A stretch of DNA of 64,000 bases from Polyangiales bacterium (lineage in GTDB: Bacteria > Myxococcota_A > Polyangia > Polyangiales > Polyangiaceae), in contig JBBRLQ010000003.1 in NCBI GenBank assembly GCA_038231275.1, positions 172,340 to 236,339 on the forward strand. The letters run 5' to 3'. This document shows positions 10,210 through 47,271 of this stretch, in pieces. The notes under the pieces are model-generated. The model was given only the letters and a program-made list of their open reading frames with translations, made no database searches and had not been told where the DNA came from. A program made the position numbers and the translations under genes. Within the stretch, counting starts at the first letter, position 1; every line of letters begins with the position of its first letter.

Positions 10210-11763
10210 TCAGCCGAGGATGCGCACCTTGAAGCCGAGCTCCTGCGAGAGCGCGATCATTTCGCCGTAGACGTCTCCGTACGCGACGGCGACGTGGTTC
10301 GAGAGGTAGTGCGCCATGAGCGTCTCTTGCGAGATCCCCATGTCGGCGGCCATGAACGGCCATTCGCGCGTCGTGCCCTCCCACCACTGATCGCGGACGG
10401 CGGGGGGGAGTTTGACGACCTCGCCTTTGCCGACGTCCATCCAGAGCTCGCCCTTTTTGATGTAGGCGCGGGCCCAGGTCATGTTGCCGGGGAGGCTCTC
10501 GCCGGCGAGCGTGCCACCGGGCGTGGGGAAGTAGAGCGACGGTTGCCGGTAGGAGTGCGCGCCCTTCAAGGTCGACGGATCGTGGTTGAACGCGTAGGGG
10601 CCGCACGAGCCGCTGTTCAGGAGGACCCAGAGGAACCGTCCGTCGTGTTTGGCGCCCCAGCGGACGTCGTGGAACATGACGGCCTGGTGGAGCCCCTTCC
10701 TCTTGAGGAGGCGCTTCATCATCTCCATCGGCATCGCGTTGCCCTGATCGGCCTCGGTCGCCGTCGCGACCGTGTCGCCGTTCGACTCGGGGCGGCATGT
10801 GCCGTTGAGCAAGCCCTCGGCCAGATCGCTCGGCGGGCGGAGCGGGATGAGGCCGAGCTGGTATTGCCAGCCGAGGCAGTCGGCCTTGTATTCTGCAAGC
10901 AGGTCTATGACGACCAGGTAGTCACGGAGCTGTTCCTTCGTCGCCGCCTGATCGAAGTCGGCGTTGCCGTTCTCGCCCCAGTGAAATTGGAGGCCCGCCT
11001 TCACGCAGAATTCGAACGCGTCCTGGATGCGCTTGTCGGCGATGCGCTTGCCGCGGTCGATGATCCACGCCTGATCGATCTTGTGCTCGGTGAAGCCGTG
11101 CTTGTTGAGCAGGCGCGGCCCGAAGTACCCGTTGATCATCCCCATCGACGTGTCGCCGAGCATCATGAGGAGGACGCGGCGCTTCTTGATCTCGCCGGCG
11201 ACAGCGGCGGCGTGGGCGACGGCGCTCTCGGAGACGGGCGCGCTGTACCGCACCTGTTCTTCGCCGTAGCGAATCTGTCCGGAGGTGCACCACTCGTCGA
11301 GGCGCGCCATGAAGGTCGCGTCGGTCGTCCAGTCGGCGGCCTCGGTCCACGCGCGAGAGAACGGGCGATCGAGGCTCTCGAGGCACGCGCCGGTGTTGAG
11401 GAGGCCGACGAGGCCCGGCCAGCGTCCGCTGAAGTTGCTCGCGAGGAGCAGCGGGTTGTCCTTTCCGACGACGCCGTCGGTCGTGTGCGGGCCGTAGAAC
11501 CAGTGCACGCACACGCCGATCATCGGATCGTCGATGGGGCCGAGTTTGTCGATTGCCTCGTGGGGCTTCGAGAGGAAGCCGTCGACCTGGTACGGCTCGC
11601 GACCGAGCTTCTTCAGCGCGCGGACCAGCTGGCCTGTCGCTTCGATCATGTTCGGCGTCGCGAGCTCGTTGGGCTTGGCGCGCGCGTCCCCGGGCCAGAA
11701 AACGGCGATCTTCTTTGCCATGATGCGGGAGATGGTAAGCGCGAAGTCGGCCGGCGTCAGCAC
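10210..11763 (-). CDS. L-arabinose/L-fucose isomerase family protein (AraA/FucI-like)
   Basis: 517 aa. Family-like motifs (MLGDTSMGM similar to FGDNMR; C-terminal ..LMAHYLSNHVAVAYGDVYGEMIALSQELGFKV). Last gene of the minus-strand array. Confidence 0.6.
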   Translation of the reverse strand: MLTPADFALTISRIMAKKIAVFWPGDARAKPNELATPNMIEATGQLVRALKKLGREPYQVDGFLSKPHEAIDKLGPIDDPMIGVCVHWFYGPHTTDGVVGKDNPLLLASNFSGRWPGLVGLLNTGACLESLDRPFSRAWTEAADWTTDATFMARLDEWCTSGQIRYGEEQVRYSAPVSESAVAHAAAVAGEIKKRRVLLMMLGDTSMGMINGYFGPRLLNKHGFTEHKIDQAWIIDRGKRIADKRIQDAFEFCVKAGLQFHWGENGNADFDQAATKEQLRDYLVVIDLLAEYKADCLGWQYQLGLIPLRPPSDLAEGLLNGTCRPESNGDTVATATEADQGNAMPMEMMKRLLKRKGLHQAVMFHDVRWGAKHDGRFLWVLLNSGSCGPYAFNHDPSTLKGAHSYRQPSLYFPTPGGTLAGESLPGNMTWARAYIKKGELWMDVGKGEVVKLPPAVRDQWWEGTTREWPFMAADMGISQETLMAHYLSNHVAVAYGDVYGEMIALSQELGFKVRILG

Positions 11764-11778: not shown

Positions 11779-13278
11779 TCAACCGTCTGTCTTGTAGGGG
11801 TTTGGACGCGGCTCGGGGGTCGTGGCCGGCGGCGGCGTCGGGGGCGCGACGGGCGGCGGCGTGGTCGCGGCGGATGGCGGCAGCGGCGGCGGCGTGCCGC
11901 GAGGGGGACGCGTTCGCGGGGGACCCGACGCGTGTGCCGGCGTGCTCGCGCTCGGCTCGGCCGCCGTGGCGGTGGTCGGGGGCACGGCCGCCCCACCGGA
12001 GCTCGCAGGTTCGGCGGCGCTGGCGGCGAGCGGCGGCGGCGCGACGGGCGCCGCGAGCGGCGTGGACGGGACGTCGGTGGTCGCGGGAGCCTCGCGTCTC
12101 TTCATTCGCGGAACGACGACGGCCGCCGCACCGCCCGCGACCACGAGCGCCGCCACGACGGCGATCGCGCCACGCCTGGACCGCGGCGGCGCTTGCCTCG
12201 GCGCGACCTGCTGCGCGGTGACGGGAGCGCCGGTCTTGGACGACGCCTCTTGCGCGTACACGAGCGTGGGCTTCGCGGCGGCCATTCGCGCCGACGGCGA
12301 CGGCGCGGCGAGCGTGGGCATCTCCCCGATCGCCTTTCCGTCGCGAGGCGTGAGGCCCGCCCTGCGCGCGTCGAGCGACTCGCCGAACGAAGACCGCACG
12401 AGCTGCGCCACCTCCCCGTGCGCCGCGAGCCCCACCGGCCGCGCCGCCGCGTAGAGCGCGTCGGCGAGCGCCTCCATCGTGGGGAAGCGATCGTCCGGCG
12501 ACTTGGCGAGCGCGCGCGCGACGATCGCGTCGAACGCGGTGCCGAGCGCCACGCGCTCCGACGAGACGGGCGGCGGCACGTAATAGAGGAGGCGCATGAG
12601 CGCTTCGGCCTCGTTTGCCGCCGCGAAGAGCTGCTTGCTCGCGAGCCCCTCCCAGAGCACGACGCCGAGCGCGAAGACGTCGGCGCGGCGGTCCACGCCC
12701 TTGCCTTGCAGGTACTCGGGCGCCATGTACCCGAGCTTCCCCTTCAGCATGTCGCCGGTGGATGCCATGCCGGTGTGCGCGACGCATTTGGCGATGCCGA
12801 AGTCGCTGACGCGCGAGACCCCGTCGACGCCGACGAGCACGTTCTGAGGAGAGACGTCGCGGTGCACGAGGCCGAGAGGGCGACCTTCGCGATCCTTCGC
12901 CTCGTGAGCGGCGTGCAGACCGCTCGCTGCGTCGAGCACGACGCGCAAGAAAATCGCCGGCGTGGGGCCCGCGTCGCCGACGGCGAGGAGCTCGGCGAGC
13001 GAGACGCCGTCGATGTACTCCATGACCATCGTGACGGACGCGCCGTCGAGCTCGACGTCCCGAACGGCGACCACGTTGGCATGGCGGATGAGCGCCGAGA
13101 CGTACGCTTCTTTGACGAACATGTCGCGGAACGACTTCTGCTCGAGCAAATGCGGATGCGGCCTCTTCAGCGCCACGAGCTGCTCGAAGCCGAGCGCGCC
13201 GCGGACGCGACCCACGTAGACCTGCGCCATCCCTCCCGACGCCAGCTTGCCGACGATCTCGTAGCGGGTCGCGGTCAC
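11779..13278 (-). CDS. Ser/Thr protein kinase (Hanks-type) with Pro/Ala-rich C-terminal tail and a single TM-like segment
   Basis: Kinase subdomains: GxGxxG (GKLASGGMAQVYVG), VALK, HRDVSPQNVL, DFG (SDFGIAK), APE (MAPEY). Probable GTG start at 13276..13278. Confidence 0.85.
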   Translation of the reverse strand: MTATRYEIVGKLASGGMAQVYVGRVRGALGFEQLVALKRPHPHLLEQKSFRDMFVKEAYVSALIRHANVVAVRDVELDGASVTMVMEYIDGVSLAELLAVGDAGPTPAIFLRVVLDAASGLHAAHEAKDREGRPLGLVHRDVSPQNVLVGVDGVSRVSDFGIAKCVAHTGMASTGDMLKGKLGYMAPEYLQGKGVDRRADVFALGVVLWEGLASKQLFAAANEAEALMRLLYYVPPPVSSERVALGTAFDAIVARALAKSPDDRFPTMEALADALYAAARPVGLAAHGEVAQLVRSSFGESLDARRAGLTPRDGKAIGEMPTLAAPSPSARMAAAKPTLVYAQEASSKTGAPVTAQQVAPRQAPPRSRRGAIAVVAALVVAGGAAAVVVPRMKRREAPATTDVPSTPLAAPVAPPPLAASAAEPASSGGAAVPPTTATAAEPSASTPAHASGPPRTRPPRGTPPPLPPSAATTPPPVAPPTPPPATTPEPRPNPYKTDG

Positions 13279-13291
13279 GGGGAGGCGCGCC

Positions 13292-14200
13292 TCACAAGGA
13301 TCCCCGTAGGCCGGCCACGGCACCCCCCGTCGTCGGGGAGAGGACGAACGCGGTCTCACCGGTCTTCCAGCGAACCGCGAACAGCGCGAGCGCGCCGGTG
13401 ACCACGGCGGCGGCGGCGGTGACTCCGAGGAGCACGTTCGTGCGCACCACCGCCGCCCGTCCGTCGTCGACGAGCCCCGCGCACCCGGTGTGCGCGGCCT
13501 GATCGCACCGGTCGGTCACGAAGACGTCGTGCTGCCGGATGGCGTCGGTCCCCGACCAGATCGTGACGCCGCCAACGACCGCGGTCACGCCGAGGCCGAC
13601 CCACACCCACGCAGGCGACAGGCCCCCCTCGGGCGCGCGGGGCGGCGGAGGCTTTGCAGGCTCTGCGGTCGGCAATACGATCTCCTCGAGGGCGCCAGCG
13701 CGGAGCTCGATGGGCCGCTCGATCGCGCGCGCACCGTCGCGAACGACCACGAGGTGCTTGCCCGCCGTGATCCACGAGATCACGTTGGGCGCCACCGCGC
13801 CGCCATCGATCGTCGCGCTGCACGTGCCGCAGGCGACGCGGACGCGGCCCACGCGACCTCCGAACTTCGCGCGGAGCTTGGCCGCGAGATCAACGGCGGC
13901 GCCCTCTCCGTTACGCGCCGCCGCGCGGGCCGTGAGGGTCATGCCGAGCGCGGCGTCGTCGGCGTGCAGCGCCGCCTCGAGCGCGGAGAGGAGCGCGACG
14001 TCGTTGGGCGCGATCTCGTCGGCGCGCGCGAACTCCTGGGCCGCGGTCGCGAAGTCTCCTCGCCGTTGCGCCTCGGCGCCGCGGTCGTACGCGTCGCTCG
14101 CCGCGCGAGAGCGCGCGGTGTCCTCCGCGCGGGCACGTGGAACGGCCGTGAATGCGGCGACGGCAAGCAGCAGACTCACGCACCGCGCGGCTCGGAACAC
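13292..14200 (-). CDS. secreted TPR-like / PEGA-like protein with C-terminal transmembrane segment
   Basis: Signal peptide (LLLAVAAFTAVPRARAED); helical TPR-like N-terminus; PEGA-like stretch (VRVACGTCSATIDGGAVAPNVISWITAGKHLVVV); TM near C-terminus. 13 bp upstream of the kinase gene. Confidence 0.55.
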   Translation of the reverse strand: MFRAARCVSLLLAVAAFTAVPRARAEDTARSRAASDAYDRGAEAQRRGDFATAAQEFARADEIAPNDVALLSALEAALHADDAALGMTLTARAAARNGEGAAVDLAAKLRAKFGGRVGRVRVACGTCSATIDGGAVAPNVISWITAGKHLVVVRDGARAIERPIELRAGALEEIVLPTAEPAKPPPPRAPEGGLSPAWVWVGLGVTAVVGGVTIWSGTDAIRQHDVFVTDRCDQAAHTGCAGLVDDGRAAVVRTNVLLGVTAAAAVVTGALALFAVRWKTGETAFVLSPTTGGAVAGLRGSL

Positions 14201-14219: not shown

Positions 14220-15587
14220 TCAGGAGCGGTGTCCGGTCCCGTACTTGGCGAGCATTCGGCCGAGGTGCGTGCGATCGAGCCCGGCGATTCGTGCCGCCGC
14301 CGACTGGTTGCCGTGGGTTTGCGCGAGGAGCGCGCGCAGGTAGACGACGGTGAACCGCTCGATCATCGCATCCTTCAACGTCGCGTACGGCTGCGACATG
14401 TCGAGGAGCTCCGAGAAGACCATGTCGAGCTTGTCCGAGCGACGAGAGAGGACCTCGGGCAGCTCGCCGAGCGCCGCGTACGCGTACACGGCGTTCCGCA
14501 GCTCGCGGACGTTGCCGGGCCAAACGCGCGCGTGCAAGCGGGGCAGGACCTCGGGCGGCAGGCCGGTGAGCCCCGCCTCCTTCGCGAAGCGATTGGCCAA
14601 GACCTCCACGTCCTCGACGCGATCGCGCAGCGCGGGCACGTTGAGGCGGACGATCGCGAGGCGGTAGAAGAGATCCTCACGGTACTGACCGGCGCCGACC
14701 TCCGCGAGGAGATCGCGGTTGGTCGCCGCGACGACGCGCACGCGCACCTTGCGCACCGAGTCGCCGCCGACCGGGCGGATTTCGCCTTCCTCGAGCGCGC
14801 GGAGGAGCATCGGCTGCACGTCGAGCGGGAGCTCGCCGATCTCGTCGAGGAAGAGCGTGCCGCCGTCGGCCGACTCGAACGCGCCGCGCCGCGCCTCCGA
14901 GGCGCCGGTGAACGCCCCTTTTTTGTGGCCGAACAGCTCGCTGGCGATGAGCTCGCGCGAGAACGCGCCGCAGTTGACGGCGACGAACGGCGCCTTCGCG
15001 ACCTTGGAGCGCGCGTGGAGCGCGCGGGCGACCAGCTCCTTGCCGACGCCGGACTCCCCCTCGACCAGGATCGGCACGAGCGACCCTTCGAGCCGAATGA
15101 GCGCGGCGAACAGCCGCTGCATCGCCGGCGAGTGCCCGAGGATGCCCGCGTACTCGGTCACCGGGAACGGGATCTTCGCGTCCAGTCCTTCGGTGTCGGC
15201 GCCGATGAGGACGCTCGGGCGACCGACCGAGATGCGACTTCCCGGCGCCAGCACCATCCCCTCCACGCGCTGGCCGAGGTAGAACGTGCCGTTGCGGCTC
15301 CCCAGATCGCGGACGAGCACGCCTTCGGGCGCGAGCTCGAGCTCGAGGTGGCGGCGCGAGACCGTGGGATCCGCGATGACGATGTCACAGTCCGGCGCCG
15401 ATCCGATGACGCACTTGCCGCTCGTCAGGCGGAACGCCTTGGGCTCCGCCGCGGCGTCCACGCACCGCAGCACCACCCCGAGCGGGCCGTCCATCTTCGC
15501 CGCGCTTCGCGGCATCACGTCGGTCACCGCCACAGCCGCGCCCGGCGGATGGGGCGGCGGCGGCTCGTCGCGAGGCCTTCGGGTCAT
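14220..15587 (-). CDS. sigma-54-dependent transcriptional activator with N-terminal FHA domain (FHA-AAA+-HTH bacterial enhancer-binding protein)
   Basis: FHA core (IGSAPDCDIVIADPTVSRRHLELE..GSRNGTFY). AAA+ Walker A GESGVGKE, GAFTGA, ESELFGH. Sigma-54 contact motif matching consensus GAFTGA. Arg-finger region. C-terminal Fis-type HTH (AARIAGLDRTHLGRMLAKYG). Confidence 0.9.
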   Translation of the reverse strand: MTRRPRDEPPPPHPPGAAVAVTDVMPRSAAKMDGPLGVVLRCVDAAAEPKAFRLTSGKCVIGSAPDCDIVIADPTVSRRHLELELAPEGVLVRDLGSRNGTFYLGQRVEGMVLAPGSRISVGRPSVLIGADTEGLDAKIPFPVTEYAGILGHSPAMQRLFAALIRLEGSLVPILVEGESGVGKELVARALHARSKVAKAPFVAVNCGAFSRELIASELFGHKKGAFTGASEARRGAFESADGGTLFLDEIGELPLDVQPMLLRALEEGEIRPVGGDSVRKVRVRVVAATNRDLLAEVGAGQYREDLFYRLAIVRLNVPALRDRVEDVEVLANRFAKEAGLTGLPPEVLPRLHARVWPGNVRELRNAVYAYAALGELPEVLSRRSDKLDMVFSELLDMSQPYATLKDAMIERFTVVYLRALLAQTHGNQSAAARIAGLDRTHLGRMLAKYGTGHRS

Positions 15588-15608: not shown

Positions 15609-16178
15609 CTACCGGCAGACCGTGAACGGAGTAGGGGCGGAGGTGGTCGTCGCGCAGGTGACGCCGGCGTCGATGGCGGCGCACTCGTCGTAGCTCGCGC
15701 AGAGGATTACGCCGCCCGCGCCGTTGCAATCCTTGGGCGTCTTGCACACGGCGCTCGGCGGCTTGCTCTCGGAGGTCCAGCCCGAGAAACAGCACACCGA
15801 GCCCGCCCCGCAGTTGGCGGCGGACAGGCAGTCGTACACCGAGCACGTGAAAGCTCCGCTGCTGCACTCGAAGGTCGTCGCCGCCGCGTCGCCGCGATAG
15901 CAGCACGTCTTCGGGCTCGCGCACCCAGGGCACGGCGGCTGCGGGCCCGCGTCGATGTCGGCGTCAGTGACCGCGTCGCCGCCGGCATCGCCCGCGTCCG
16001 AACCGCGCGGGCCCGCGTCTCCCTGCGCGTCTACGACCGTCGAGTCGGACGGCGCGTCCGCCGCGGCGTCGGGGCTCGGCCCGAGGTTGAAGTCGACGCC
16101 GCATCCGGCGCACGTCGCAGCGGCGACAATCGCCACGAACGAGGAGACCGGCAAGAGGACCACGTCATTGGCAAACAT
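15609..16178 (-). CDS. secreted cysteine-rich protein, CCY-motif family, paralog 2 (189 aa)
   Basis: Start MFANDVVLLPVSSFVAIVAAATCAGC (signal plus lipobox-like). About 20 Cys; motif TCCYRGDAAATTFEC shared with the adjacent paralog. 14-bp overlap with the upstream paralog. Confidence 0.55.
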   Translation of the reverse strand: MFANDVVLLPVSSFVAIVAAATCAGCGVDFNLGPSPDAAADAPSDSTVVDAQGDAGPRGSDAGDAGGDAVTDADIDAGPQPPCPGCASPKTCCYRGDAAATTFECSSGAFTCSVYDCLSAANCGAGSVCCFSGWTSESKPPSAVCKTPKDCNGAGGVILCASYDECAAIDAGVTCATTTSAPTPFTVCR

Positions 16179-16795: not shown

Positions 16796-18619
16796 TCATT
16801 GGCCGACGAAGCTCCGGTAGAGGATCTTGGCGATCTGGGCGCGCGTGAGGCTCGCGTTCGGCCGGAACGTGCCGTCGCCGTAGCCGTCGATGAGCTGGTG
16901 CGAGTGCGCCGCCTCGACGTACCCGTAGAACGCGTTGTCGCGCGGCACGTCGGTGAACGTCGGCGTCTGCGGATCCTCGGGAGCCCAGCCTTTGCCGAGG
17001 ACGAACATCTTCACGGCTTGCCCGCGCGTCAGCGTGTTCTGCGGCCGGAAGGTGCCGTCCGAATACCCGCCGATGATCCCGTTCGCGGCCAGGGTCTCGA
17101 CGTACTGGAAGCGCGGGTCTCCGGTCGACACGTCCGAGAACGTCGCCCCGCTCGGGCTCGCGAGGGGCAACGTGCCGTAGCGATGACCGGACGCGGCGAT
17201 CGTGCCGTACGTGAGCGCGCGCCCCAGCGCGGTGGCGAGCTCGCCGCGCGTCGGCAGGTGGCCGGCGCCGAAGTTGCCGTCGGGCTGGCCGTCGAGAATT
17301 CCGTCGGCGGCGAGCCCTTCGACGAACGTGTACGCCCAGTCGTTGGGCGGCTCGTCGAGGAACTTCTGGCCACTCCAGAACTCATCGGGCACGCCACGCG
17401 ACGGATCGCCGGTGAGGCCGCGCAGCTTCTGCCAGACGTCGTCCCGCACGGCGCCCCCCGCCAGGCGCGTGCCGAAATGCTTGGGGCCCGGATCGTCGTC
17501 GATCGCGTCGTACCAAAGCGCCGCGTGGACCGACCACGCCCACGGGCTGTCGGTGTGGAACGCCTCGTACGACGCCTGCATCGCCGCGCGCATTTGGTCG
17601 GGCGTGCGCACGCAGTTGTGGAAGACGCCCATGTCGTCGGGGCACGGCTGCGACCAGCCGGTGGGGGGCGATTGCCAGCCGAACTCGGTGACCATCAGCT
17701 CGGTGCGCGTGCCGCTCACCTGCTGGAGGCGGTCACGCACGTGCGCGATGTCGTCCTTGACCCACTGCTTCCAGCCGCCGAAGCAGTCCACGCGATCGGG
17801 GGACGTCGCGTTCACGCAGGCCAGGTCGACCTTCGCGCCGTCGTACGGGTGCACCGCCATGAAGTCGAACGGCATGAACGCGGCGTTCTCGGCGCAGCCG
17901 TACAGGGCCGGCGCGGGCGCGACGCAACGGAACGCGCCCGACGTGAAGAACGGCTCGTACCAGCCTGTCTCGTCGCGCGCGTACGTGTTCGCGGTTCCCG
18001 CGGAGACGACCTTGATGTCGCTCCATCGCCCGCCGGCGAGCAGGTGCTCCTTCACGCGACGCGCGAGCCACGCGGTCATGTTGCCGCCCCATCGGCTGCC
18101 GTTGATTTCGTTGCCGGTCTCGATTGCGTCGGGGTGCGCGGCGTTCGACGCGAAGGCTTCCTGCAGGAGTGGGTCGAGACGGTTCTGCACGTAGTCCTGG
18201 ATGTCGGCGTCGGCGGCCGGGCAGGGGACGTGCTGGCCGGGCGGGCAATCGAGCGGCGCCTGGAGGACGACGACCACCTGGAGACCGTGGGCGTGCGCCT
18301 TCTCCACGAGCTGGCCGAGGAGCGCGTTCGAGAGACCGCCCCAGCCGGCCTCCACGCGAATCCATCCCACGCCGAGCCCCGTCGTGATCTCGCCGAAGAA
18401 CGCGTCGCCGTTCGCGTCGAGGCGGTGCGCGCCGGACTGGTAGATGCCGCCGGTGACGACGCCGAACCGCGTGCCCTCGGCGCCGGAGGCGTGGGCGTCG
18501 AGCGGCGTCGCGCCGACGGCGTTCCCTTCGCCCGGTCCTTGGCCTTCGCAGGCGGCGACGATCGCCAGCGCGACACAGGAGAGGGCTCGACCGAAAAGAC
18601 CACGATTCGGATTCGGCAT
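16796..18619 (-). CDS. secreted glycoside hydrolase (GH5-like/clan GH-A) with three C-terminal S-layer homology (SLH) domains
   Basis: Signal peptide plus lipobox (VALAIVAACEG). Clan-A catalytic motifs (IETGNEINGS; VTEFGWQ). Three SLH-like repeats (..DGYGDGTFRPNASLTRAQIAKILY). Start chosen at internal Met with signal peptide (18619). Confidence 0.75.
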   Translation of the reverse strand: MPNPNRGLFGRALSCVALAIVAACEGQGPGEGNAVGATPLDAHASGAEGTRFGVVTGGIYQSGAHRLDANGDAFFGEITTGLGVGWIRVEAGWGGLSNALLGQLVEKAHAHGLQVVVVLQAPLDCPPGQHVPCPAADADIQDYVQNRLDPLLQEAFASNAAHPDAIETGNEINGSRWGGNMTAWLARRVKEHLLAGGRWSDIKVVSAGTANTYARDETGWYEPFFTSGAFRCVAPAPALYGCAENAAFMPFDFMAVHPYDGAKVDLACVNATSPDRVDCFGGWKQWVKDDIAHVRDRLQQVSGTRTELMVTEFGWQSPPTGWSQPCPDDMGVFHNCVRTPDQMRAAMQASYEAFHTDSPWAWSVHAALWYDAIDDDPGPKHFGTRLAGGAVRDDVWQKLRGLTGDPSRGVPDEFWSGQKFLDEPPNDWAYTFVEGLAADGILDGQPDGNFGAGHLPTRGELATALGRALTYGTIAASGHRYGTLPLASPSGATFSDVSTGDPRFQYVETLAANGIIGGYSDGTFRPQNTLTRGQAVKMFVLGKGWAPEDPQTPTFTDVPRDNAFYGYVEAAHSHQLIDGYGDGTFRPNASLTRAQIAKILYRSFVGQ

Positions 18620-18669
18620 GCGCAGGGGCTCCTTGGAAGGGCGCGCTCGACGTCGCGCGGAGACACCTT

Positions 18670-18686
18670 CAGCAGCCGGCATGCCA
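18670..18686 (-). promoter_or_regulatory. candidate sigma-54 promoter (minus strand reads TGGCATGCCGGCTGCTG) upstream of the SLH-glycosidase gene
   Basis: Matches the TGGCAC-N5-TTGCW architecture, with GG and GC dinucleotides at the canonical spacing. About 40 nt upstream of the 18619 start. Confidence 0.4.
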
Positions 18687-18760
18687 CGACGCGTTCGTGG
18701 GAGAACGCAGCACACTTCAGGTTGCGCCGCGATCCGATTGCGGCATCCACCCCGACGATC

Positions 18761-18778
18761 TGCGGCATCGATGCCGCA
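18761..18778. promoter_or_regulatory. 18-bp perfect palindrome TGCGGCATC|GATGCCGCA, with an upstream half-site copy at 18738..18747; candidate enhancer/UAS between divergent sigma-54-like promoters
   Basis: Exact inverted repeat read from sequence. Lies between the promoter candidates at 18670..18686 and 18821..18836. Confidence 0.4.
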
Positions 18779-18820
18779 GACTCGAAATCGAAATCGTCTC
18801 TATTTTGCCTGAGGATCGCG

Positions 18821-18836
18821 TGGCGCGCGGTGTGCA
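18821..18836 (+). promoter_or_regulatory. candidate sigma-54 promoter TGGCGCGCGGTGTGCA upstream of the 18850 gene
   Basis: GG/GC elements at -24/-12-type spacing. The -12 GC is 14 nt before the ATG, implying a near-leaderless transcript if real. Confidence 0.35.
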
Positions 18837-18849
18837 GAAATGAACCGAA

Positions 18850-19761
18850 ATGCACCACCCCACTCGTCGAACCGCATCGGGTCCTCTGCTCCTCTCCTTC
18901 TTCTCGATCGCATGCGCGACCGGCGCCCCCGCGTGCTCGAGCGACGCCGCCGCGCCCGAGGCGCCGACCGAGCAAGCCCAGGCCTGGGGCACCCCGTGGA
19001 CGATGGACGGCGCGTTCGCCGACGAGCTCCGCGAGGTCACCGGGGACGATCCCGTCGGGCTCACCGCGTTCTGGCGCGGCACGAACGCGAGCGGCCGCTA
19101 CGACGGCGCGTACTTCCAGACGTGGCCCGGCGAGCGCATCCACGTCGGAGCGCTCGTCATCACCGGCTCGGGCAAGGCCGATGCGGGGCAGAACGATCTG
19201 AAGACGTTCCCGTTCCCCGACGGCGCCACCATCATCCCGTGTCTGCAATCGGTCGGCGGCATCCAGAGCGCGTACATGATCCGCACGAGCAACGGGATCG
19301 AAGCGCGCAAGCGCCTCGCGCAGTACGACGTCACCGGCTCGGAGCTCTTCGGGCACAGCGCCGGCGCGTGGGTCGCCGTCGTGATGGGCATCCTCGGTCG
19401 CGCGTCGCGCGTCGACGTGTACGGCGTCCCGTTCTTCTTCCCCATCCACGGCGAGCTCACGTGGGGGAGGACGACCATCGGCTTCCACACGCACGCGCAC
19501 GATCCGGTCGGCTTCGGGTTCGACGTGCCGGCGATGCTCGGTGCGATGGAGTACAACCAGATCCGGTACGGAGACGCGCAGCGCGAGCACGACACCTACC
19601 GCGATCCGGAGCCGGCCCAGACCCCGCTCACGGAAGACGAGTGGACGCGCGTTCGCGAGTACCTGGTCATCCGGCTGGAGATCGCGCTCGGGAAACTCCC
19701 CATCGACACGTGCTGGGGCAAGCCGTGCGTGGCCGATCACATGGGCGGTTCGGGCCTTTGA
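18850..19761 (+). CDS. secreted alpha/beta-hydrolase-like lipoprotein (GxSxG serine motif)
   Basis: Signal peptide plus lipobox (LLLSFFSIACATG). GHSAG nucleophile-elbow-like motif. Downstream His/Asp-rich region. Confidence 0.5.
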   Translation: MHHPTRRTASGPLLLSFFSIACATGAPACSSDAAAPEAPTEQAQAWGTPWTMDGAFADELREVTGDDPVGLTAFWRGTNASGRYDGAYFQTWPGERIHVGALVITGSGKADAGQNDLKTFPFPDGATIIPCLQSVGGIQSAYMIRTSNGIEARKRLAQYDVTGSELFGHSAGAWVAVVMGILGRASRVDVYGVPFFFPIHGELTWGRTTIGFHTHAHDPVGFGFDVPAMLGAMEYNQIRYGDAQREHDTYRDPEPAQTPLTEDEWTRVREYLVIRLEIALGKLPIDTCWGKPCVADHMGGSGL

Positions 19762-19837: not shown

Positions 19838-21370
19838 ATGCCGATGGGGCCTGGTGCGTCGAGGGTTGGAGCAGGCGCGGCCGTCGTGCTCGCGGTGCTC
19901 GCGTCGTTACCCGTCGCGCGGGCGCAGGGAAATTACCGCGCGACGCCGACCGGCGGACGTTCTGCGCTCCTCGGGGACACCGGCATCGCGCTCGCCACCG
20001 ACGGCGCGTCGCCGTTCTTGAACCCCGCCACGATCGTCCGAATCCACGACGCGAGCCTCGCGTTCTCGGTGAGCTTCTTCTCGTTCACGAGCGCCACGTT
20101 CGCGGGGTGGCACCAGCCGGGCCCGGTCGACACCGGGCGCTTCGGTCCGCTCTCCGTCGACGCGTCGCGCGAGTCGACGAGCCGCTTCGACGCGATCCCG
20201 TCCACGCTCTGTCTATTTTTCACGGTCGCCGGCTGGGGCGATCCCAGCGACGCCAGCCTGGCGAAGGAGCCGCGCTTCTGGGCCGCGCCGCGCACCGGCC
20301 GACAGAAGCTCGCCGCGTGCCTCGGGACGACCGAGCAGCAGGAGCTCGATCTCCCCGCGGTGAACCTCCGCACGAGCGCGCCCGGCGGCATTTCGCACGC
20401 CGCGCAGTCGTTCCACCAGACGTTCCGCCGCGTCCACGTCGGCCCCAGCTACGGCATCGACGTGACCGACGCGCTCACGTTCGGCGTCTCGCTGCACGGC
20501 GTGATCACGTCGTACGCGTACCTCTGGTCGTCGAGCGCCATCACCAGCGACGCCTCCGGCGCCCCCGTCGCCACGAGCCTCGACGCGACGGGGAATGGGC
20601 GCTCGATCGATCTCGACGCGATCTTCGGCGCGACGTACCGCGCGGGGCGTCTCACCTTCGGCGCCTCGGCCAAGCCGCCCGCCCTCCATGCCGGCGGGAG
20701 CTACGACGCGAGCCTTCATCAGCAGGCGGGCGCCACCGGCCTCTCGAGCGCGCTGCTCACCACCGCGTCCGGGGATTTTCGTGCGCCGTCGCCCGGTCGC
20801 GTCGGCGTCGGCGTCGGCGCCGACCTCGGTCGCGCGAAGCTCGAGGTCGACGGGACCTACTTTTTTCCGCTCGATCGCGCGATGAGCGCGGATCTCCACG
20901 TCGACACCACCACGATCGCCAACGGCGTGGCGACGCCTTCGTCCAGCGACGCGGTGTACTCGGCGCGCGCGCGCCCGGTCGTCGACGGCGCGGCGGGCGT
21001 CGAATATTTCGTGTCGCCGACGTTGAGTGTCTTGGGCGGCGCGAGCTCCGACATCACGAGCGCGTCGGAGCTGAGCACGGCGTCGTCGGTCGGCGCGTTC
21101 CATCAAGCGCGCGTGAGCCGCGTCGGCGTGTCGGCGGGGCTCGGGTCGTACGGCTCCGGCGGCACGCTCCTCATCGGCGTGCGGCTGTCGACCGGGTGGG
21201 GCCAGGCGCTCGCCGTGAACCCGTACGTCGTTCCCAACGACTACGCCACCGTGGACACGCGCACGTACGGCGCGATGCTCGTCGTCGCGGGCTCCACGAG
21301 CTTCCGCGCCATCCGCGGCGTCGTCGACTCGGTCGGCGAGATCGTGAAGCCGAAGCGTGACGAGCCCTGA
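19838..21370 (+). CDS. secreted hypothetical protein (possible outer-membrane beta-barrel), 510 aa
   Basis: N-terminal signal peptide (AAVVLAVLASLPVARAQG). Alternating hydrophobic/polar Ser/Gly/Ala-rich composition throughout. Chosen over the overlapping alternative frame 19792..21360. Confidence 0.5.
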   Translation: MPMGPGASRVGAGAAVVLAVLASLPVARAQGNYRATPTGGRSALLGDTGIALATDGASPFLNPATIVRIHDASLAFSVSFFSFTSATFAGWHQPGPVDTGRFGPLSVDASRESTSRFDAIPSTLCLFFTVAGWGDPSDASLAKEPRFWAAPRTGRQKLAACLGTTEQQELDLPAVNLRTSAPGGISHAAQSFHQTFRRVHVGPSYGIDVTDALTFGVSLHGVITSYAYLWSSSAITSDASGAPVATSLDATGNGRSIDLDAIFGATYRAGRLTFGASAKPPALHAGGSYDASLHQQAGATGLSSALLTTASGDFRAPSPGRVGVGVGADLGRAKLEVDGTYFFPLDRAMSADLHVDTTTIANGVATPSSSDAVYSARARPVVDGAAGVEYFVSPTLSVLGGASSDITSASELSTASSVGAFHQARVSRVGVSAGLGSYGSGGTLLIGVRLSTGWGQALAVNPYVVPNDYATVDTRTYGAMLVVAGSTSFRAIRGVVDSVGEIVKPKRDEP

Positions 21371-23382: not shown

Positions 23383-23451
23383 GCGCCCTGGGTGTGCCGC
23401 AACGTGTGCCATGGGAATCGTCGAAACCCCGAGAAAGTGCACGTGACGTCG

Positions 23452-23467
23452 CGGCACGGCCGTTGCT
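23452..23467 (+). promoter_or_regulatory. candidate sigma-54 promoter CGGCACGGCCGTTGCT upstream of the (SSG)n lipoprotein gene
   Basis: 15 of 16 matches to TGGCACG-N4-TTGCW. The -12 GC is 14 nt before the ATG at 23480. Confidence 0.45.
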
Positions 23468-23479
23468 GATGGACAGGGG

Positions 23480-24982
23480 ATGCGCCTCTCTCTCGTCGTC
23501 GCCCTGCTTCCTCTCCTGTCGGTCGCCGCGTGCGGCGGGCGCTTCCAAGCCATCGACGATGGGTCGAGCGGCAGCAGCGGGTCGAGCGGCAGCAGCGGGT
23601 CGAGCGGCAGCAGCGGGTCGAGCGGCAGCAGCGGGTCGAGCGGCAGCAGCGGATCGAGCGGCAGCAGCGGATCGAGCGGCAGCAGCGGATCGAGCGGGGA
23701 CGTGGGGGGCCTCACGCTGGGCTCGTACGATCTGACATTTTCTCTGGTGACGCAGGACACGCAAGGTGGCCTCTTTGGGCCGCCGCCGTCGATCAACCAC
23801 GCGTTCCGCGTGGATCTCGTAGAGAGCAAGGGGACCGTGCTCGGGCTGGTGACGCCACGATGGGGCGCGCCGTCGATCTACTCCGTGGCGATCGAGCCGA
23901 GCTCCGTGGTGCTGAGCGGCAAGGGGAAGTACAGCGAGAATTTTTCGACCGACACGTGGAGCACGATCACGATCTGGCGCGTCCACTCCGGCGGGCTTTC
24001 GGCGAGCTTCGACGCGACCGGCGTGGAGGACGCGAGCGGTGGCGACATCATCGCGCACGGCAACATCCGCGGGAGCGGCTTCCTTACCGTCGACGCGCTC
24101 GCGCCGGAGGTCCGCATCGGCGCGACGTCGCCCATGGGGCCCGAGGGCGCGCTCCTCCCCTGGGATCCGATCACGCTCACGTTCGCCGAGACGGTGTCGA
24201 GCGCCGGCGATCCGTTCGCCAGTTTCGCCATCACCTCGAACGGCGGCGCGCCCGTCGGTCTGAAGGTCGACGCTCCGGTGAACGCCCCGGCCCCGTTCGC
24301 CGGAGTCATCGCCGGCGCAGCGCGCCTCACGAGCTTCGCCCCGATCGGCGCCTCGACGGTCGCGTGGCCCAATGGCCTCGCCGATCCCGCCGGGCACGCG
24401 CTCGGCGCCGTGAAGCAGCCGCTTTCGTTCCTGCCGCTGCCGGTCTCCCTGAAGCAGCACACCTTCGACGGCGACGTCGTGACCGTCGGCACCTGGGGCT
24501 CCACGACGCTGCTCGGCGGGCTCGGCGGCCCCGACGCGTCGTGCGAGAGCGGCGGCTGCGCGCAGATCGGCTCCTTCCTCGATGGGTATTGCCAGGGGCA
24601 GACGCAGCGCCTCGGCGTCGCCGCGCGCCTCGATACGAGCGCGGCGACCGGCATCTCGATTCGCTACCGCGTCTTCGTCGAGGACAAGGGTAGCGGCGCG
24701 CCGTACATTCCTGCGGCATTCGCGGTGCAGACGGCGGCGCCGGGCTCGAACGTCCACACCGAAAGCGTCAACCCGACGCCTAGCGATTGGAAGAAGCTGG
24801 CCGCGCCGTGGAAGGGAATGGGCTGGGCGACCGACTGGACCACCATGAGCTTCGGCGTGCCCATCGCGAAGGAGACCGGCGTAGGCATCATCGCGGGCAG
24901 CGGCCCCAACTCGAGCCCGTGCGGCCTCGTCCCCGCGCCGTCGAACGTGATCGTCCTCGTCGACTCGATCTCCGCGAACTAG
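23480..24982 (+). CDS. lipoprotein with long (SSG)n linker and about 430-aa C-terminal domain of unknown function
   Basis: Signal peptide plus lipobox (LLPLLSVAACGG); (SSG)x~17 run; remaining sequence has no motif recognised by eye. Confidence 0.65.
   Translation: MRLSLVVALLPLLSVAACGGRFQAIDDGSSGSSGSSGSSGSSGSSGSSGSSGSSGSSGSSGSSGSSGSSGSSGDVGGLTLGSYDLTFSLVTQDTQGGLFGPPPSINHAFRVDLVESKGTVLGLVTPRWGAPSIYSVAIEPSSVVLSGKGKYSENFSTDTWSTITIWRVHSGGLSASFDATGVEDASGGDIIAHGNIRGSGFLTVDALAPEVRIGATSPMGPEGALLPWDPITLTFAETVSSAGDPFASFAITSNGGAPVGLKVDAPVNAPAPFAGVIAGAARLTSFAPIGASTVAWPNGLADPAGHALGAVKQPLSFLPLPVSLKQHTFDGDVVTVGTWGSTTLLGGLGGPDASCESGGCAQIGSFLDGYCQGQTQRLGVAARLDTSAATGISIRYRVFVEDKGSGAPYIPAAFAVQTAAPGSNVHTESVNPTPSDWKKLAAPWKGMGWATDWTTMSFGVPIAKETGVGIIAGSGPNSSPCGLVPAPSNVIVLVDSISAN
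23561..23696. repeat. 18-bp tandem DNA repeat (about 7.5 copies; GGGTCGAGCGGCAGCAGC with a G/A variant) encoding (SSG)n
   Basis: Near-perfect copies; two sub-variants (gggtcg.. x5 then ggatcg.. x3). Confidence 0.8.
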
Positions 24983-26325: not shown

Positions 26326-27252
26326 GTGCCTGCCCACGAATCCCGCGCGCGAGCGCGTAGCGCCGAGCCCGGGTACTCGATCCGCGTCGCCTCGCGTCTC
26401 ACGCAGATCGAGCCCGACACCCTCCGCATGTGGGAGCGCCGTTACGGCTTCCCGGTGCCAACGCGCACGGCGGGAGGAAGCCGCGTCTACACCGAGGCGG
26501 ACGTCCAGACGCTCCTCCTCGTGAAGCGCGCGATGAAGGCGGGCTACCGGCCCGGCGAGATCGTCGGCCGCCGCGCCGAAGAGATCGCGCAGATGATCGC
26601 GCGCAGCGGTCCGGTGGCGGAGGACGCGCCGGCGCAGCCCGCGTCGATGGACGCCGTCCTCACCGCGCTCGCGCGCGACGACGCGAGGCAGGTACGCCTC
26701 GAGATCAAGAACCTCGCGCTCGTGCTCGGCCCCAAGCGCTTCGTCACGGACCTCGCGTATCCGCTCGCGAAGAAGGTCGGCGAGCTGTGGCAAGCGGGGA
26801 AGCTGGAGGTGCGGCAAGAACACCTCCTCTCCGAGTCGCTCGCGACCCAGCTGCGCGTTCTCCTCTCCGCGTTCGAGGACGCGCAAGAGGGGCCGAACGT
26901 GGTCTTGACGACGCTCCCCGACGAGCCGCACGGCCTCGGCCTCACCATGATCGCGCTCTACTGCGCGATCCATCAGGTCGTGCCGCGCCTCCTCGGCGTG
27001 AACACGCCTCCCGAGCAGATCGTCGCGGCGGCGACGGCGCTCGACGTGTCGGCGGTCGGCCTCTCGGTGGTGCTCCCGCCCGATCCGGCGCGCGCGGCGA
27101 AGCAAATCCGCTGGATCGCCGGCGAGCTCCCGCGAAAGGTGCGCTTGTGGGTCGGCGGCATGGGCACGCCTGCCCTAGGCCTCAAGGGAGACTCGGTCGA
27201 CGTCGTGCAGACGTGGGCGCAGCTCGACGACGTGATCGCGGCGCTGCGCTGA
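26326..27252 (+). CDS. MerR-family HTH regulator fused to a cobalamin (B12)-binding domain (CarH/LitR-like light-responsive repressor candidate)
   Basis: N-terminal MerR HTH (YSIRVASRLTQIEPDTLRMWERRYGFP). C-terminal B12-binding Rossmann region with lower-axial-His motif E-P-H-G-L-G (ExHxxG) within VVLTTLPDEPHGLGLTMIAL. Confidence 0.8.
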   Translation: MPAHESRARARSAEPGYSIRVASRLTQIEPDTLRMWERRYGFPVPTRTAGGSRVYTEADVQTLLLVKRAMKAGYRPGEIVGRRAEEIAQMIARSGPVAEDAPAQPASMDAVLTALARDDARQVRLEIKNLALVLGPKRFVTDLAYPLAKKVGELWQAGKLEVRQEHLLSESLATQLRVLLSAFEDAQEGPNVVLTTLPDEPHGLGLTMIALYCAIHQVVPRLLGVNTPPEQIVAAATALDVSAVGLSVVLPPDPARAAKQIRWIAGELPRKVRLWVGGMGTPALGLKGDSVDVVQTWAQLDDVIAALR

Positions 27253-34845: not shown

Positions 34846-35562
34846 ATGAAGAAGATCACGATGGGCGGGCTCGATGCCGTGCTCGCCGGCGGCACCGATC
34901 GCCAAGGGGGCGGAGACGGCCCGCTGCTCGTGCTCCTCCACGGCTTCGGCGCTCCGGGGGACGATCTCGTCTCGCTCCATCGCGTCATCGACGCGCCGTC
35001 TGGCACCCGCTTCCTCTTCCCGGTCGCGCCCGTAACGCTGCCTCCGCACTACGGCGCCGGTCGCGCCTGGTGGCACATCGACATGGTCGCCCTCGACCGC
35101 GCCGTGCGCGAGGGAAGGTCGCGGGACCTCTCTCGCGACGTCCCCGACGGGCTCGCCGACGCGCGCGCGAAGCTCGTCGCGATGCTCGACGAGGCAAAGG
35201 TGATCCTGTCGCCGTCCGCGATCGTGCTCGGCGGATTTTCCCAAGGCGCGATGCTCTCGTGCGACGTCGCGCTCCACTCCGACATGCCGCTCGCCGGTCT
35301 GGTGCTGCTATCGGGCACGTTGCTCGCGGAAGCGGAGTGGACCTCGCGGATGCCTTCGCGCAAGGGATTGCCGGTGCTCCAGTCGCACGGCCGTCAGGAT
35401 CCGATGCTTCCGTTCGACATGGCGGAGCGCTTGCGTGATCTCTTGAAGGAGGCCGGGCTCGCCGTCACGTTCGTCCCGTTCAACGGCGGTCACAGTATCC
35501 CGCCCGCCGCTCTCGACGGCTTGCGCCCGTTCCTCGCGAGCGCGTTCAGCCGTACTGGTTGA
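34846..35562 (+). CDS. phospholipase/carboxylesterase family alpha/beta hydrolase
   Basis: 238 aa. LLHGFGA, nucleophile elbow GFSQGA, Asp/His downstream (..GGHSIP). Confidence 0.85.
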   Translation: MKKITMGGLDAVLAGGTDRQGGGDGPLLVLLHGFGAPGDDLVSLHRVIDAPSGTRFLFPVAPVTLPPHYGAGRAWWHIDMVALDRAVREGRSRDLSRDVPDGLADARAKLVAMLDEAKVILSPSAIVLGGFSQGAMLSCDVALHSDMPLAGLVLLSGTLLAEAEWTSRMPSRKGLPVLQSHGRQDPMLPFDMAERLRDLLKEAGLAVTFVPFNGGHSIPPAALDGLRPFLASAFSRTG

Positions 35563-36478
35563 CGCGGTTTCTTCCGCCGCGCTTCGCCGCGTAGAGCGCC
35601 TCGTCGGCGGCGGCGACGAGCTGCACCGACGACTCGGCCGCGAACTCCGGCATCCCGGCCACCCCGAGGCTCACCGTCACGCCGACGCGTGTGCCGGCGG
35701 CGTCGAGCGGGGACGCCGCGACGTGCCCGCGGATGCGCTCGGCGAGGACGCACGCCTGATCGCGCGAGACGCCGCGGCAAATCACGGCGAACTCCTCTCC
35801 TCCGTACCGCGCTAACACGTCCTCTGCTCGAAGCGTGCGGGCAACGATCTGCGTGAGCGTGACGAGCACCGCGTCGCCCGCGAGGTGCCCGAGCGTGTCG
35901 TTGACGCGCTTGAAGTGATCGACGTCGAGCATCACGAGCGACAAGTTCGTGCGGTGTCGCCGCGCGTACGCGAGCTCGGTGTCGAGTCGGGTGAGGAAGT
36001 ATTTCTTGTTGAAGATGCCGGTGAGGCCGTCCCGGAGCGCGGCGTCGTACATCTGCTTCTGGAAGTTTTCTTCGAGCTCGTCGTGCAGCGTGAACTTGAC
36101 CAGCGTGTTCGGCCCGAGCTGGATCTTGTCCTCGGCGCGGAGCGCGTGGGTCATGGTGCGCTCGCCGTTGACGAGCATCCCGTTCGCGCTCTTCAAGTCC
36201 TCGATGATCCACTCGCCGCCCGGCGCGCTCCACAGGCGCGCGTGCCGACGAGAGACGCCGTCGTCGTCGAAGCGAATCGTGGAGGAAGGCGAGCGCCCCA
36301 AGATGAGCTCGCCTTCCTCCAAGCGAAACGTCTCGCCGACGTTCGCGCCGATGAGCACGATCAGGTACGGCGTCAGCTTGCGCGCCCGCGCTTTCTCCGC
36401 GCTGCCGATGGACGAGATCCTCGTGATCGAGGTCGCTTCCTCTTGCTCGTCGTCGGGATTCCGCGGTGGCGGGGACAT
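35546..36478 (-). CDS. FHA domain-GGDEF diguanylate cyclase
   Basis: FHA (LGRSPSSTIRFDDDGVSRRHARL). GGDEF domain with RYGGEEF active site and DxLTG/KRVND motifs. Confidence 0.9.
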   Translation of the reverse strand: MSPPPRNPDDEQEEATSITRISSIGSAEKARARKLTPYLIVLIGANVGETFRLEEGELILGRSPSSTIRFDDDGVSRRHARLWSAPGGEWIIEDLKSANGMLVNGERTMTHALRAEDKIQLGPNTLVKFTLHDELEENFQKQMYDAALRDGLTGIFNKKYFLTRLDTELAYARRHRTNLSLVMLDVDHFKRVNDTLGHLAGDAVLVTLTQIVARTLRAEDVLARYGGEEFAVICRGVSRDQACVLAERIRGHVAASPLDAAGTRVGVTVSLGVAGMPEFAAESSVQLVAAADEALYAAKRGGRNRVNQYG

Positions 36479-45871: not shown

Positions 45872-45912
45872 GAGGCTCGTCTCCCCTGAAGAAAATCCCC
45901 TGAAGAAAACCA

Positions 45913-45944
45913 AAAGGCGGTCTCCTTTCGGAGACCGCCTTTTG
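45913..45944. terminator. rho-independent bidirectional terminator (AAAAGGCGGTCTCC-tttc-GGAGACCGCCTTTT)
   Basis: 14-bp perfect stem, 4-nt loop, flanked by an A-run and a T-run, 42 bp after the TAA of the BNR gene. Also a 13-bp direct repeat CCCCTGAAGAAAA x2 at 45883..45909. Confidence 0.75.
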
Positions 45945-45952
45945 CGTTTCGG

Positions 45953-46036
45953 GCGCAGGCGAAGGAGTCGAACCTTCTCGAGTCATCGAACACCCTGGAG
46001 GGCGGCTCCCCCGAGCCCTTTCCGTCGATGCCTGCG
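45953..46036 (-). ncRNA. tRNA-like element: canonical T-arm (GAAGG-TTCGACT-CCTTC) plus perfect 7-bp acceptor helix (CGCAGGC/GCCTGCG); 5' half is non-canonical. Possible tRNA pseudogene or att-site remnant
   Basis: Folded by hand on the minus strand. T-loop fits TΨCRANN, and a discriminator plus CC follows. D and anticodon arms could not be fitted (A at position 8, no 7-nt anticodon loop found). Confidence 0.3.
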
Positions 46037-46156
46037 TGCTTCACCCATAAGCATCGCGCGTGCCGCGGGCAAATTACGCGCAAGTGCGCGAGGTGACGTA
46101 GCGGCGCCGACGGCCCAGCGCCAGGGTTTTGTCGTCGTGCGTCGACGCGCCGTGGA

Positions 46157-47205: not shown

Positions 47206-47271
47206 GTGAAACGAGCCTAGCGCGGGGAAGCGCGCGGCAAAAGCCGACGTTTTCACCTGCGAGGTGACCCG

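Follow-up and report, generated by a model that had tools for sequence, protein, structure and literature searches.

Myxobacteria possess dozens of activators of sigma-54-dependent transcription and hundreds of Ser/Thr protein kinases, very few of which have known targets. The activators, known as bacterial enhancer-binding proteins (bEBPs), include forms with an FHA domain that are reportedly present in Myxococcus xanthus as developmental regulators of the Myxococcia (Jelsbak, Givskov and Kaiser 2005, cited in PMC12288465). The subject of the present analysis is a 230-bp gap between two back-to-back genes in a stretch of 64 kb (69% G+C, referred to throughout as the window) from a Polyangiales bacterium (assembly GCA_038231275.1, contig JBBRLQ010000003.1, positions 172,340 to 236,339), in which an FHA-bEBP is encoded in a tight minus-strand array starting at the gap. 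An initial annotation had described the gap as a divergent control region with sigma-54-type promoter matches on either side of a palindrome. We consider it reasonably likely that the gap is indeed a bidirectional sigma-54 control region, in which a bEBP enhancer would serve divergent promoters and the FHA-bEBP would feed back on its own array.

The closest described architecture is that of zraP and zraSR in E. coli and Salmonella, the divergent sigma-54 promoters of which are both controlled by ZraR (PMC4987338). There, as proposed here, divergent sigma-54 promoters share an activator region, one of the two units encodes the activator, which is autoregulated, and the products act on the cell envelope. 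The layout of such an architecture is present in the window, with one predicted promoter marginal and with the co-transcription of the bEBP gene deduced from short intergenic gaps. However, ZraR is a two-component response regulator that receives its phosphate from the histidine kinase ZraS, whereas here an FHA domain is found together with a Ser/Thr kinase encoded in the same array; the DNA motifs of the two systems are unrelated, and one of the promoters here would be nearly leaderless. A second relevant case is PexR of M. xanthus, a bEBP with tandem interrupted palindromes (CACCG-n6-CGGTG) as its binding sites upstream of a validated sigma-54 promoter of katB/ahpC (PMC12754779). The two systems have in common a myxobacterial bEBP, G+C-rich interrupted palindromes and a divergent arrangement of regulator and target with intergenic regions of less than 300 bp, but PexR has a GAF sensor and three full repeats, whereas the window has an FHA domain and a single palindrome plus a half-site, with the motif TGCGG-N8-CCGCA.

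The FHA-bEBPs of M. xanthus resemble the protein of the window in the order FHA, AAA+ and helix-turn-helix (HTH), confirmed here for the protein of the window, and in a presumed input from Ser/Thr kinases; they differ in that here a three-gene module found across the Polyangia is accompanied by a candidate enhancer motif and a proposed autoregulated operon. A further likeness is to the NtrC sites at glnAp2 (TGCACCA-N3-TGGTGCA), which lie at about -100 to -140 with more than one of them in helical phase. Both kinds of site have dyad symmetry, 7-bp arms beginning TGC and ending GCA, a similar position and multiple phased copies, but the inner bases differ, the spacer is 4 nt here as against 3 nt, and NtrC is a receiver-domain regulator. 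As a kind, an autoregulated divergent sigma-54 control region would be familiar; new would be a candidate motif and a set of putative targets for the kinase-FHA-bEBP module of the Polyangia.

The predicted minus-strand promoter and the palindrome

Candidate promoters were scored with a 17-position weight matrix (PWM) modelled on the Barrios consensus, which PMC12754779 gives as yTGGCACGrnnnTTGCw. Ranks were taken among the ~128,000 positions of the window, and the start of transcription was predicted at 12 nt beyond the C of the -12 GC. An important consideration is that bare GG/GC spacing is not rare in DNA of 69% G+C, the loose core TGGC-N8-TGC occurring 15 times in the window where 8.3 would be expected, and it is therefore the extended match and its position that carry the weight. 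On the minus strand, where TGGCATGCCGGCTGCTG had been read at 18686..18670 and is indeed present, the site (TGGCAT-GCCGG-CTGCT) scores 11.1 and ranks third, with the first G of GG and the first G of GC separated by the required 12 nt. Its geometry also fits, since it is on the coding strand upstream of the first array gene and its predicted start, at about 18660, would give a leader of 41 nt to the ATG at 18619 that includes a ribosome-binding site (Table 1). The sequence at 18687-18671 is accordingly taken as the predicted sigma-54 promoter of the minus-strand array.

Upstream of this promoter is a palindrome, TGCGGCATCGATGCCGCA, which is exact at 18761..18778 as annotated but has a true length of 22 bp rather than 18. 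Its core is TGCGG-N8-CCGCA with TCGA in the centre. Shuffling the 230-bp gap 20,000 times produced a perfect palindrome of this length only twice. No other zero-spacer palindrome of the 64 kb is as long, and arms of at least 8 are found in only one other; the palindrome is present as a single copy, without a second full one or long repeats at its flanks. The 9-mer half-site is found exactly at four places in the window, of which three are within the gap. The additional half-site had been correctly recognised, although 13 nt and not 14 separate the copies; start to start it is offset by 22 bp, or about two helical turns, on the minus-promoter side of the palindrome. The palindrome is centred at -109.5 relative to the predicted minus-strand start and at -77.5 relative to that on the plus strand, within the usual range for enhancers of ~70-200 bp upstream. 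Relaxing the motif TGCGG-N8-CCGCA to allow at most 2 mismatches gives a pattern that is depleted in the window (69 observed, 98.7 expected) and is therefore useless for finding a regulon at that stringency. A direct repeat of TCGAAA (x2.5) was confirmed as TCGAAATCGAAATCG at 18783-18797; it is not conserved in the related loci L002, L046, L165 or L170, described below, and has no support as a functional element. A scan of the gap revealed no sigma-70-type promoter match, terminator or Rfam family.

Conservation in related loci

The first array gene has one usable orthologue, P0003 (63% identical), on the 8.5-kb contig L002. Another candidate, L003 (30% identity), was dropped, its upstream region being unrelated and A+T-rich. 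The intergenic DNA of L002 has otherwise diverged, but the promoter site, the palindrome and an extra half-site have been retained, so that the minus-strand site is kept upstream of the sole orthologue in the databases searched. The -24/-12 site of L002, ACGGCACGCGCTGTGCT, is 47 nt before the ATG (measured to its A from the C of the -12 GC) and its perfect palindrome of 16 bp, GCGGACTCGAGTCCGC, has the same GCGG-NN-TCGA-NN-CCGC frame as that of the window. The two palindromes match at 12 of 16 positions and the changes are symmetric, the inner CA/TG having become AC/GT; a 16-bp palindrome arose by chance in 83 of 20,000 shuffles. The distance from the centre of the palindrome to the predicted start is virtually the same, at -107.5 in L002 and -109.5 in the window, and the extra half-site of L002 is 20 bp off, again on the promoter side. 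Facing the other way, GCGGCATGGGAGTTGCG precedes a divergent gene for an FAD oxidoreductase with SLH domains, with the palindrome at -89.5 and a predicted start located 2 nt ahead of an in-frame ATG at which a lipoprotein signal peptide begins. The contig L046, from a Polyangiales metagenome-assembled genome (MAG), has the identical 18-mer in an intergenic position, at -76.5 from TCGGCTCACGGCTTGCT (score 10.3), the predicted start of which precedes by 3 nt the ATG of a gene for a lipoprotein; the corresponding figures for the plus side of the window are -77.5 and 3 nt.

The family to which the bEBP belongs is very large in the Polyangia, with 5,500 matches at E <=1e-60 among the scored candidates, and the top matches are 58-65% identical. 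Across the best-matching members the HTH is nearly invariant (GNQSAAARxAGLDRT[HY]LGRL). In eight of the nine loci retrieved the bEBP gene is followed by a gene for the same ~300-aa partner and then by a Ser/Thr kinase gene, the order being different in L169, where a ~330-aa protein and the kinase are encoded upstream of the bEBP gene. Partners 32-37% identical to that of the window occupy the same position in L004, L005, L006, L165, L166 and L167, and kinases 47-55% identical are found in five of these loci (L005, L006, L165, L166 and L167). The three-gene module, consisting of the FHA-bEBP, a secreted or membrane protein of ~300-350 aa with no Pfam family and the Ser/Thr kinase, can be seen in the window (15587-11779) and in L004, L005, L006, L165, L166, L167, L168 and L170. 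It usually ends its operon, the first genes of which are variable and include those for secreted hydrolases, cytochromes and small Cys-rich proteins.

Palindromes of the same family are found upstream of the bEBP gene or operon in four of ten orthologous loci (the window, L165, L170 and L004), and there is no copy elsewhere in those four. In ~300 kb of Polyangia DNA the pattern GCGG-NN-TCGA-NN-CCGC was confined to such upstream intergenic regions, the number of matches expected by chance being estimated at ~0.1. Further sites tend to accompany the palindrome: a half-site in helical phase is found at 22 bp in the window and at 20 bp in L002 and L170, and second palindromes are present in L165 and L004. 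L165 has the bEBP whose HTH is most similar to that of the window, in an operon that begins with genes for a GxSxG-containing lipoprotein and a small Cys-rich protein and continues with those for the bEBP, the partner and the kinase. One of the two sigma-54-like sites of L170 faces a gene for a 294-aa protein (22-nt leader with AAGGAG); the other is weak and faces an operon that starts with a gene for a Cys-rich protein, followed by the bEBP gene. A separate observation concerns the Pendulispora-type loci L166 (9806-9790) and L168 (9772-9756), where the gap preceding the bEBP gene has a conserved sigma-54-like site that is oriented away from this gene, towards a divergent gene of 94-101 aa, and no family palindrome is present.

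Gene content of the locus

Table 1. Features of the 230-bp gap and its flanking genes, and corresponding elements of related loci
Locus	Feature	Coordinates	Strand	Remarks
Window	22-bp perfect palindrome TCTGCGGCATC/GATGCCGCAGA	18759..18780		Candidate bEBP enhancer (upstream activating sequence)
Window	Third half-site TGCGGCATC	18739..18747	+	Direct repeat of left arm of palindrome
Window	TCGAAA x2.5 direct repeat	18783..18797	+	Between palindrome and plus-strand promoter match
Window	Predicted sigma-54-type promoter GTGGCATGCCGGCTGCT	18671..18687	-	GG 18685-84, GC 18673-72
Window	Shine-Dalgarno AAGGAG	18629..18634	-	9 nt before ATG 18619
Window	Weaker sigma-54-type match GTGGCGCGCGGTGTGCA	18820..18836	+	GG 18822-23, GC 18834-35
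Window	First array gene, 607-aa lipoprotein	16796..18619	-	Putative GH-A-like TIM-barrel domain (N-terminal), three SLH
Window	Cys-rich secreted protein 1, 193 aa	16165..16746	-	Paralogue of next gene
Window	Cys-rich secreted protein 2	15609..16178	-	ATG 16178 overlaps end of upstream gene by 14 nt
Window	FHA-domain bEBP	14220..15587	-	FHA, Sigma54_activat (GAFTGA), HTH_8
Window	302-aa secreted protein	13292..14200	-	Conserved partner of bEBP and kinase
Window	Ser/Thr protein kinase	11779..13359	-	Pfam Pkinase; start candidates 13359, 13323, 13278
Window	FucI-C-like 517-aa protein	10210..11763	-	15-nt gap; possibly last array gene
Window	Divergent 303-aa orphan lipoprotein gene	18850..19761	+	Signal peptide ending SIAC
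Window	510-aa protein	19838..21370	+	Family not recognised; 76-nt gap after lipoprotein gene
L165	309-bp upstream gap			TGCGGACTCGAGTCCGCA (exactly the L002 variant), second repeat TGCGGAatgaagTCCGCA and half-site
L165	Sites after the repeats			CCGGCATACCGGTTGCA (score 10.9), AGGAGG, ATG; palindrome at -163.5
L170	GAAGCGGACTCGACTCCGCTTC; half-site at 20 bp			Flanked by two divergent sigma-54-like sites
L004	Two adjacent palindromes TGCTGCATCGGTGCAGCA, TGCGGCACGGGTGCAGCA			Fill 138-bp gap before bEBP gene

The genes were delineated from third-position G+C and Pfam matches (Table 1). The minus-strand array consists of seven genes separated by gaps of -14 to 49 nt, and it is from these short gaps only that co-transcription of the bEBP gene, 3 kb from the promoter, is inferred. 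The annotation of an FHA-bEBP with a Fis-type HTH in the array, at 15587-14220, proved correct: its Pfam matches are PF00498 (1.5e-17), PF00158 (6e-65) and PF02954 (8.5e-5), with which NCBIfam agrees, and the motifs GAFTGA, Walker A (GESGVGKE) and SRRH/SRNGT are readable. A domain scan of the remaining genes of the 64 kb gave no other bEBP. The Ser/Thr kinase encoded in the same array is likely to provide the input to the FHA domain.

The first array gene has a Pfam SLH match at 8.8e-36 and, in its N-terminal domain, invariant N-E and TEFGW motifs and weak Foldseek matches to GH30, GH51, GH53 and GH5, which tentatively suggest a glycosidase-like TIM barrel of the GH-A-like clan. The first of the Cys-rich proteins aligns both with its paralogue and with a 118-aa protein of L165. 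It follows from this gene content that the "divergent hydrolase gene" of the initial annotation was misplaced, since the hydrolase-like gene (18619-16796) heads the bEBP array and the divergent gene is that of an orphan lipoprotein. A search for homologues of this lipoprotein among 5.8 billion proteins returned only itself, it has no detectable family and no relative in the PDB, and a single-sequence model was unusable (predicted local distance difference test score 34). The gene for the 510-aa protein is probably co-transcribed with it. Other signalling genes in the vicinity are those for an FHA-GGDEF diguanylate cyclase (35546-36478, minus strand), an EAL protein (37310-38101, plus strand) and a CarH-like MerR regulator with a B12-binding domain (26326-27252, plus strand).

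The plus-strand site

The reading of TGGCGCGCGGTGTGCA at 18821..18836 of the plus strand is borne out and the GG/GC spacing of the site (TGGCGC-GCGGT-GTGCA) is right, but it scores only 7.5 and ranks nineteenth, 18 other positions of the window scoring as well or better. The transcript would be nearly leaderless because the predicted start, at about 18847, is 3 nt before the ATG at 18850, and there is no Shine-Dalgarno sequence upstream. Support for the site comes not from its own score but from the similar geometry of L046, L002 and L170. In the window, a PWM score of at least 7 at 14-15 nt from the start is found at 2 of ~50 gene starts, against ~0.03 estimated to be expected by chance, although this is a weak indication only, as the test took the first ATG of each open reading frame (ORF) and misses most of the hand-curated starts.

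Sigma-54-like sites with a predicted start 1-5 nt before an ATG occur in the window at 18820-18850 and 23451-23480, and the same geometry was seen at L002 5192-5163, L046 4580-4550, L170 9557-9585, L167 9283-9315 and L004 7872-7901. Most of the genes concerned encode lipoproteins and have no Shine-Dalgarno sequence; in L004 the ATG is that of an upstream ORF of 33 codons, which abuts the start of the bEBP gene and contains both palindromes. Leaderless mRNAs in myxobacteria have been proposed to arise from sigma-A-type promoters (PMC12754779), and no description of a leaderless sigma-54 transcript, or of its coupling to Shine-Dalgarno-independent translation, was found in the literature. It is a tentative and rather doubtful suggestion that sigma-54 promoters in this lineage of the Polyangia may routinely drive leaderless or nearly leaderless mRNAs for secreted lipoproteins. 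If that were so, activator-dependent formation of the open complex would be coupled directly to Shine-Dalgarno-independent translation, and such transcripts would be of wider interest if mapping of start sites confirmed them.

The 18-mer in other genomes

Scans for the exact 18-mer yielded 83 stretches from a genome collection (the source genome not included) and 75 from a metagenome collection. Most of the matches are isolated chance copies that fall within genes, in unrelated phyla (e.g. L030, L041, L050 and L057). Two cases stand out, namely L046, already described, and L052 (Acidobacteriaceae MAG CAVWVA010000002.1, 1-1150), where the DNA after a bEBP gene contains TGCCGCAccTGCGGCA, then the identical 18-mer and then a predicted sigma-54 promoter close to the consensus, ATGGCATCAGGATTGCA. 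The 18-mer is at -97.5 from this very strong site (score 17.1), upstream of an operon for an extracellular contractile injection system (Pvc16, sheath, tube). The recognition helices of the L052 bEBP are unlike those of the window, so that its HTH provides no argument either way and the locus is treated as an illustration only. L072 (Rhodanobacter), where a site and palindrome are found in a long stretch that is poor in genes and offers no evident target, was dropped.

In MAGs of Planctomycetota and other G+C-rich metagenome contigs the 18-mer is accompanied by a second hairpin, TGCGGCA-N4-TGCCGCA, with identical arms and a different loop. These paired hairpins occur at L049 1526-1813, L102 ~1786-2033, L109 1798-2028 (also L131), L123 1885-2127 and L024 133-169 (also L055). 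Those of L049, L102, L109 and L123 are inside intergenic units of 230-290 bp bounded by inverted repeats of 15-49 nt, which differ in sequence between loci and of which none was found in L024, and some of the units are between convergent genes. The units showed no link to bEBP genes or sigma-54 sites, and an Rfam scan of ten palindrome loci gave no match; they may represent an undescribed structured RNA or DNA element.

Proposed control of the array and alternative explanations

As we infer it, a dimer of the FHA-bEBP would bind the 22-bp palindrome through its Fis-type HTH, and the third half-site, two helical turns away, would aid the formation of a higher oligomer. From this enhancer, at about -110, the AAA+ ring would touch, through its GAFTGA loops, the sigma-54 holoenzyme held in a closed complex at 18687-18671. 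The minus-strand operon would then be transcribed, giving the hydrolase-like protein, the two Cys-rich proteins, the bEBP, the 302-aa partner, the kinase and probably the FucI-like protein, and the bEBP, being transcribed from its own target operon, would exert positive feedback. The same enhancer, at about -78, would probably serve the weaker -24/-12 element of the plus strand, from which transcription would start 0-3 nt before the ATG of the orphan lipoprotein. The co-encoded kinase would probably gate the activity of the bEBP via recognition of phosphothreonine by the FHA domain. This reading is supported by the presence of the palindrome family upstream of orthologous bEBP operons and by the conserved distance in L002. 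The autoregulation of the array that had been proposed at the outset thus gains comparative support from L165, L170, L004 and L002, while on the other side of the gap the promoter is marginal and the hydrolase gene is not where it was thought to be. Sigma-54 has been viewed as a controller of the cell exterior (PMC3162934), and the proposed targets in the array, being cell-surface proteins, are in line with that. The locus offers a testable motif (TGCGG-N8-CCGCA with central TCGA), a candidate promoter pair and a candidate cell-surface regulon, linked to a three-gene module that is conserved in the Polyangia and has a nearly invariant recognition helix, and a route from kinase to FHA domain to sigma-54 would become directly testable outside Myxococcus.

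A number of observations weigh against this interpretation. The matrix behind the promoter scores is an approximate one, reconstructed from the published Barrios consensus. The plus-strand site has G for the usual A at -22 and G for T at -14, and a ribosome-binding site would not fit between its predicted start and the ATG. The short contigs L002 and L046 are without a bEBP gene, so that linkage in cis to the bEBP is not universal; nor is the association of palindrome and bEBP, since no family palindrome was found within 10 kb in six of the ten orthologous loci (L005, L006, L166, L167, L168 and L169). There are also departures in loci that have the palindrome: in L170 GC takes the place of GG in the -24 element on the operon side, and palindrome and predicted start are only 56 bp apart, and in L004 the palindromes are downstream of the only sigma-54-like site. 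Among the stretches with the exact 18-mer, sigma-54 sites (score >=10, at 60-160 bp) were not clearly enriched, with 6 observed and 2.4 expected, nor were bEBP genes enriched (2 of 158), and some copies are between convergent genes.

The weakness of the plus-strand site leads to the question of whether the region is bidirectional at all. It may be that only the minus-strand promoter is real, the plus-strand match being due to chance or a vestigial inverted copy, in which case the palindrome would serve the hydrolase-bEBP operon alone and the lipoprotein gene would be read from a promoter for a housekeeping or extracytoplasmic function (ECF) sigma factor. We think this unlikely, though several points are in its favour: the score of 7.5, equalled or bettered 18 times in the window, a start 3 nt from the ATG for which no documented sigma-54 case was found, the one-directional arrangement of L165 and the proposed origin of myxobacterial leaderless mRNAs at sigma-A-type promoters (PMC12754779). 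Nevertheless, the gap has no sigma-70-like site, L046 combines the same palindrome with a distance of about -77 and the same spacing from promoter to ATG, sigma-54-like sites are found on both sides of the palindrome in L002 and L170, and the 2 of ~50 gene starts with a PWM score of at least 7 at 14-15 nt compare with ~0.03 expected.

Two further explanations question the role of the FHA-bEBP or of the palindrome itself. One is that the palindrome is the operator of another bEBP or of a repressor encoded elsewhere, with the FHA-bEBP a passenger whose targets are elsewhere. Against it, palindromes of this family immediately precede the bEBP gene or operon in four loci (the window, L165, L170 and L004) and are absent from the rest of those loci, the HTH of the bEBP family is nearly invariant and the 64 kb has no other bEBP. 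We regard it as improbable, notwithstanding the palindrome-bearing contigs L002 and L046 that have no bEBP gene, the six of ten orthologous bEBP loci that have no palindrome and the pairing in L052 of the identical 18-mer with a bEBP of different recognition helix. Finally, the palindrome may be a dispersed or structural element of the hairpin type, akin to repetitive extragenic palindromes (REP) or miniature inverted-repeat transposable elements (MITE) or specifying an RNA hairpin, and have no role in activation. Such elements are suggested by the 18-mer and second palindrome with the same arms in L024/L055, L049, L102, L109/L131 and L123, four of them (L049, L102, L109 and L123) in units of 230-290 bp bounded by inverted repeats of 15-49 nt and two between convergent genes, and the promoter-like sites of the window constitute an inverted pair with 71% complementarity over 21 nt. 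As the window has one copy in 64 kb with no second palindrome or long flanking repeat, as L002, L046 and the window keep the same distance from palindrome to -24/-12 site, and as the palindrome is linked to bEBP operons, this explanation is highly improbable for the gap studied here.

Other sigma-54-like sites in the window

The best PWM match of the window is GTGGCAACATAGTTGCT at 45843-45827 of the minus strand (score 14.4), which is situated in a 2.5-kb stretch (44735-47221) without an ORF of normal codon bias or an obvious downstream start codon. A match at 57230 was rejected as a false positive, being inside a gene. At 55350-55456 a sigma-54-like site, TGGGCATGGGAACTGCT (13.4), precedes a gene for an RCC1-repeat lipoprotein, the C of its -12 GC being 43 nt from the ATG; this gene has a GGAGG ribosome-binding site, and two copies of the direct repeat CGCTCGAG are found ~35 nt upstream of the promoter-like site.

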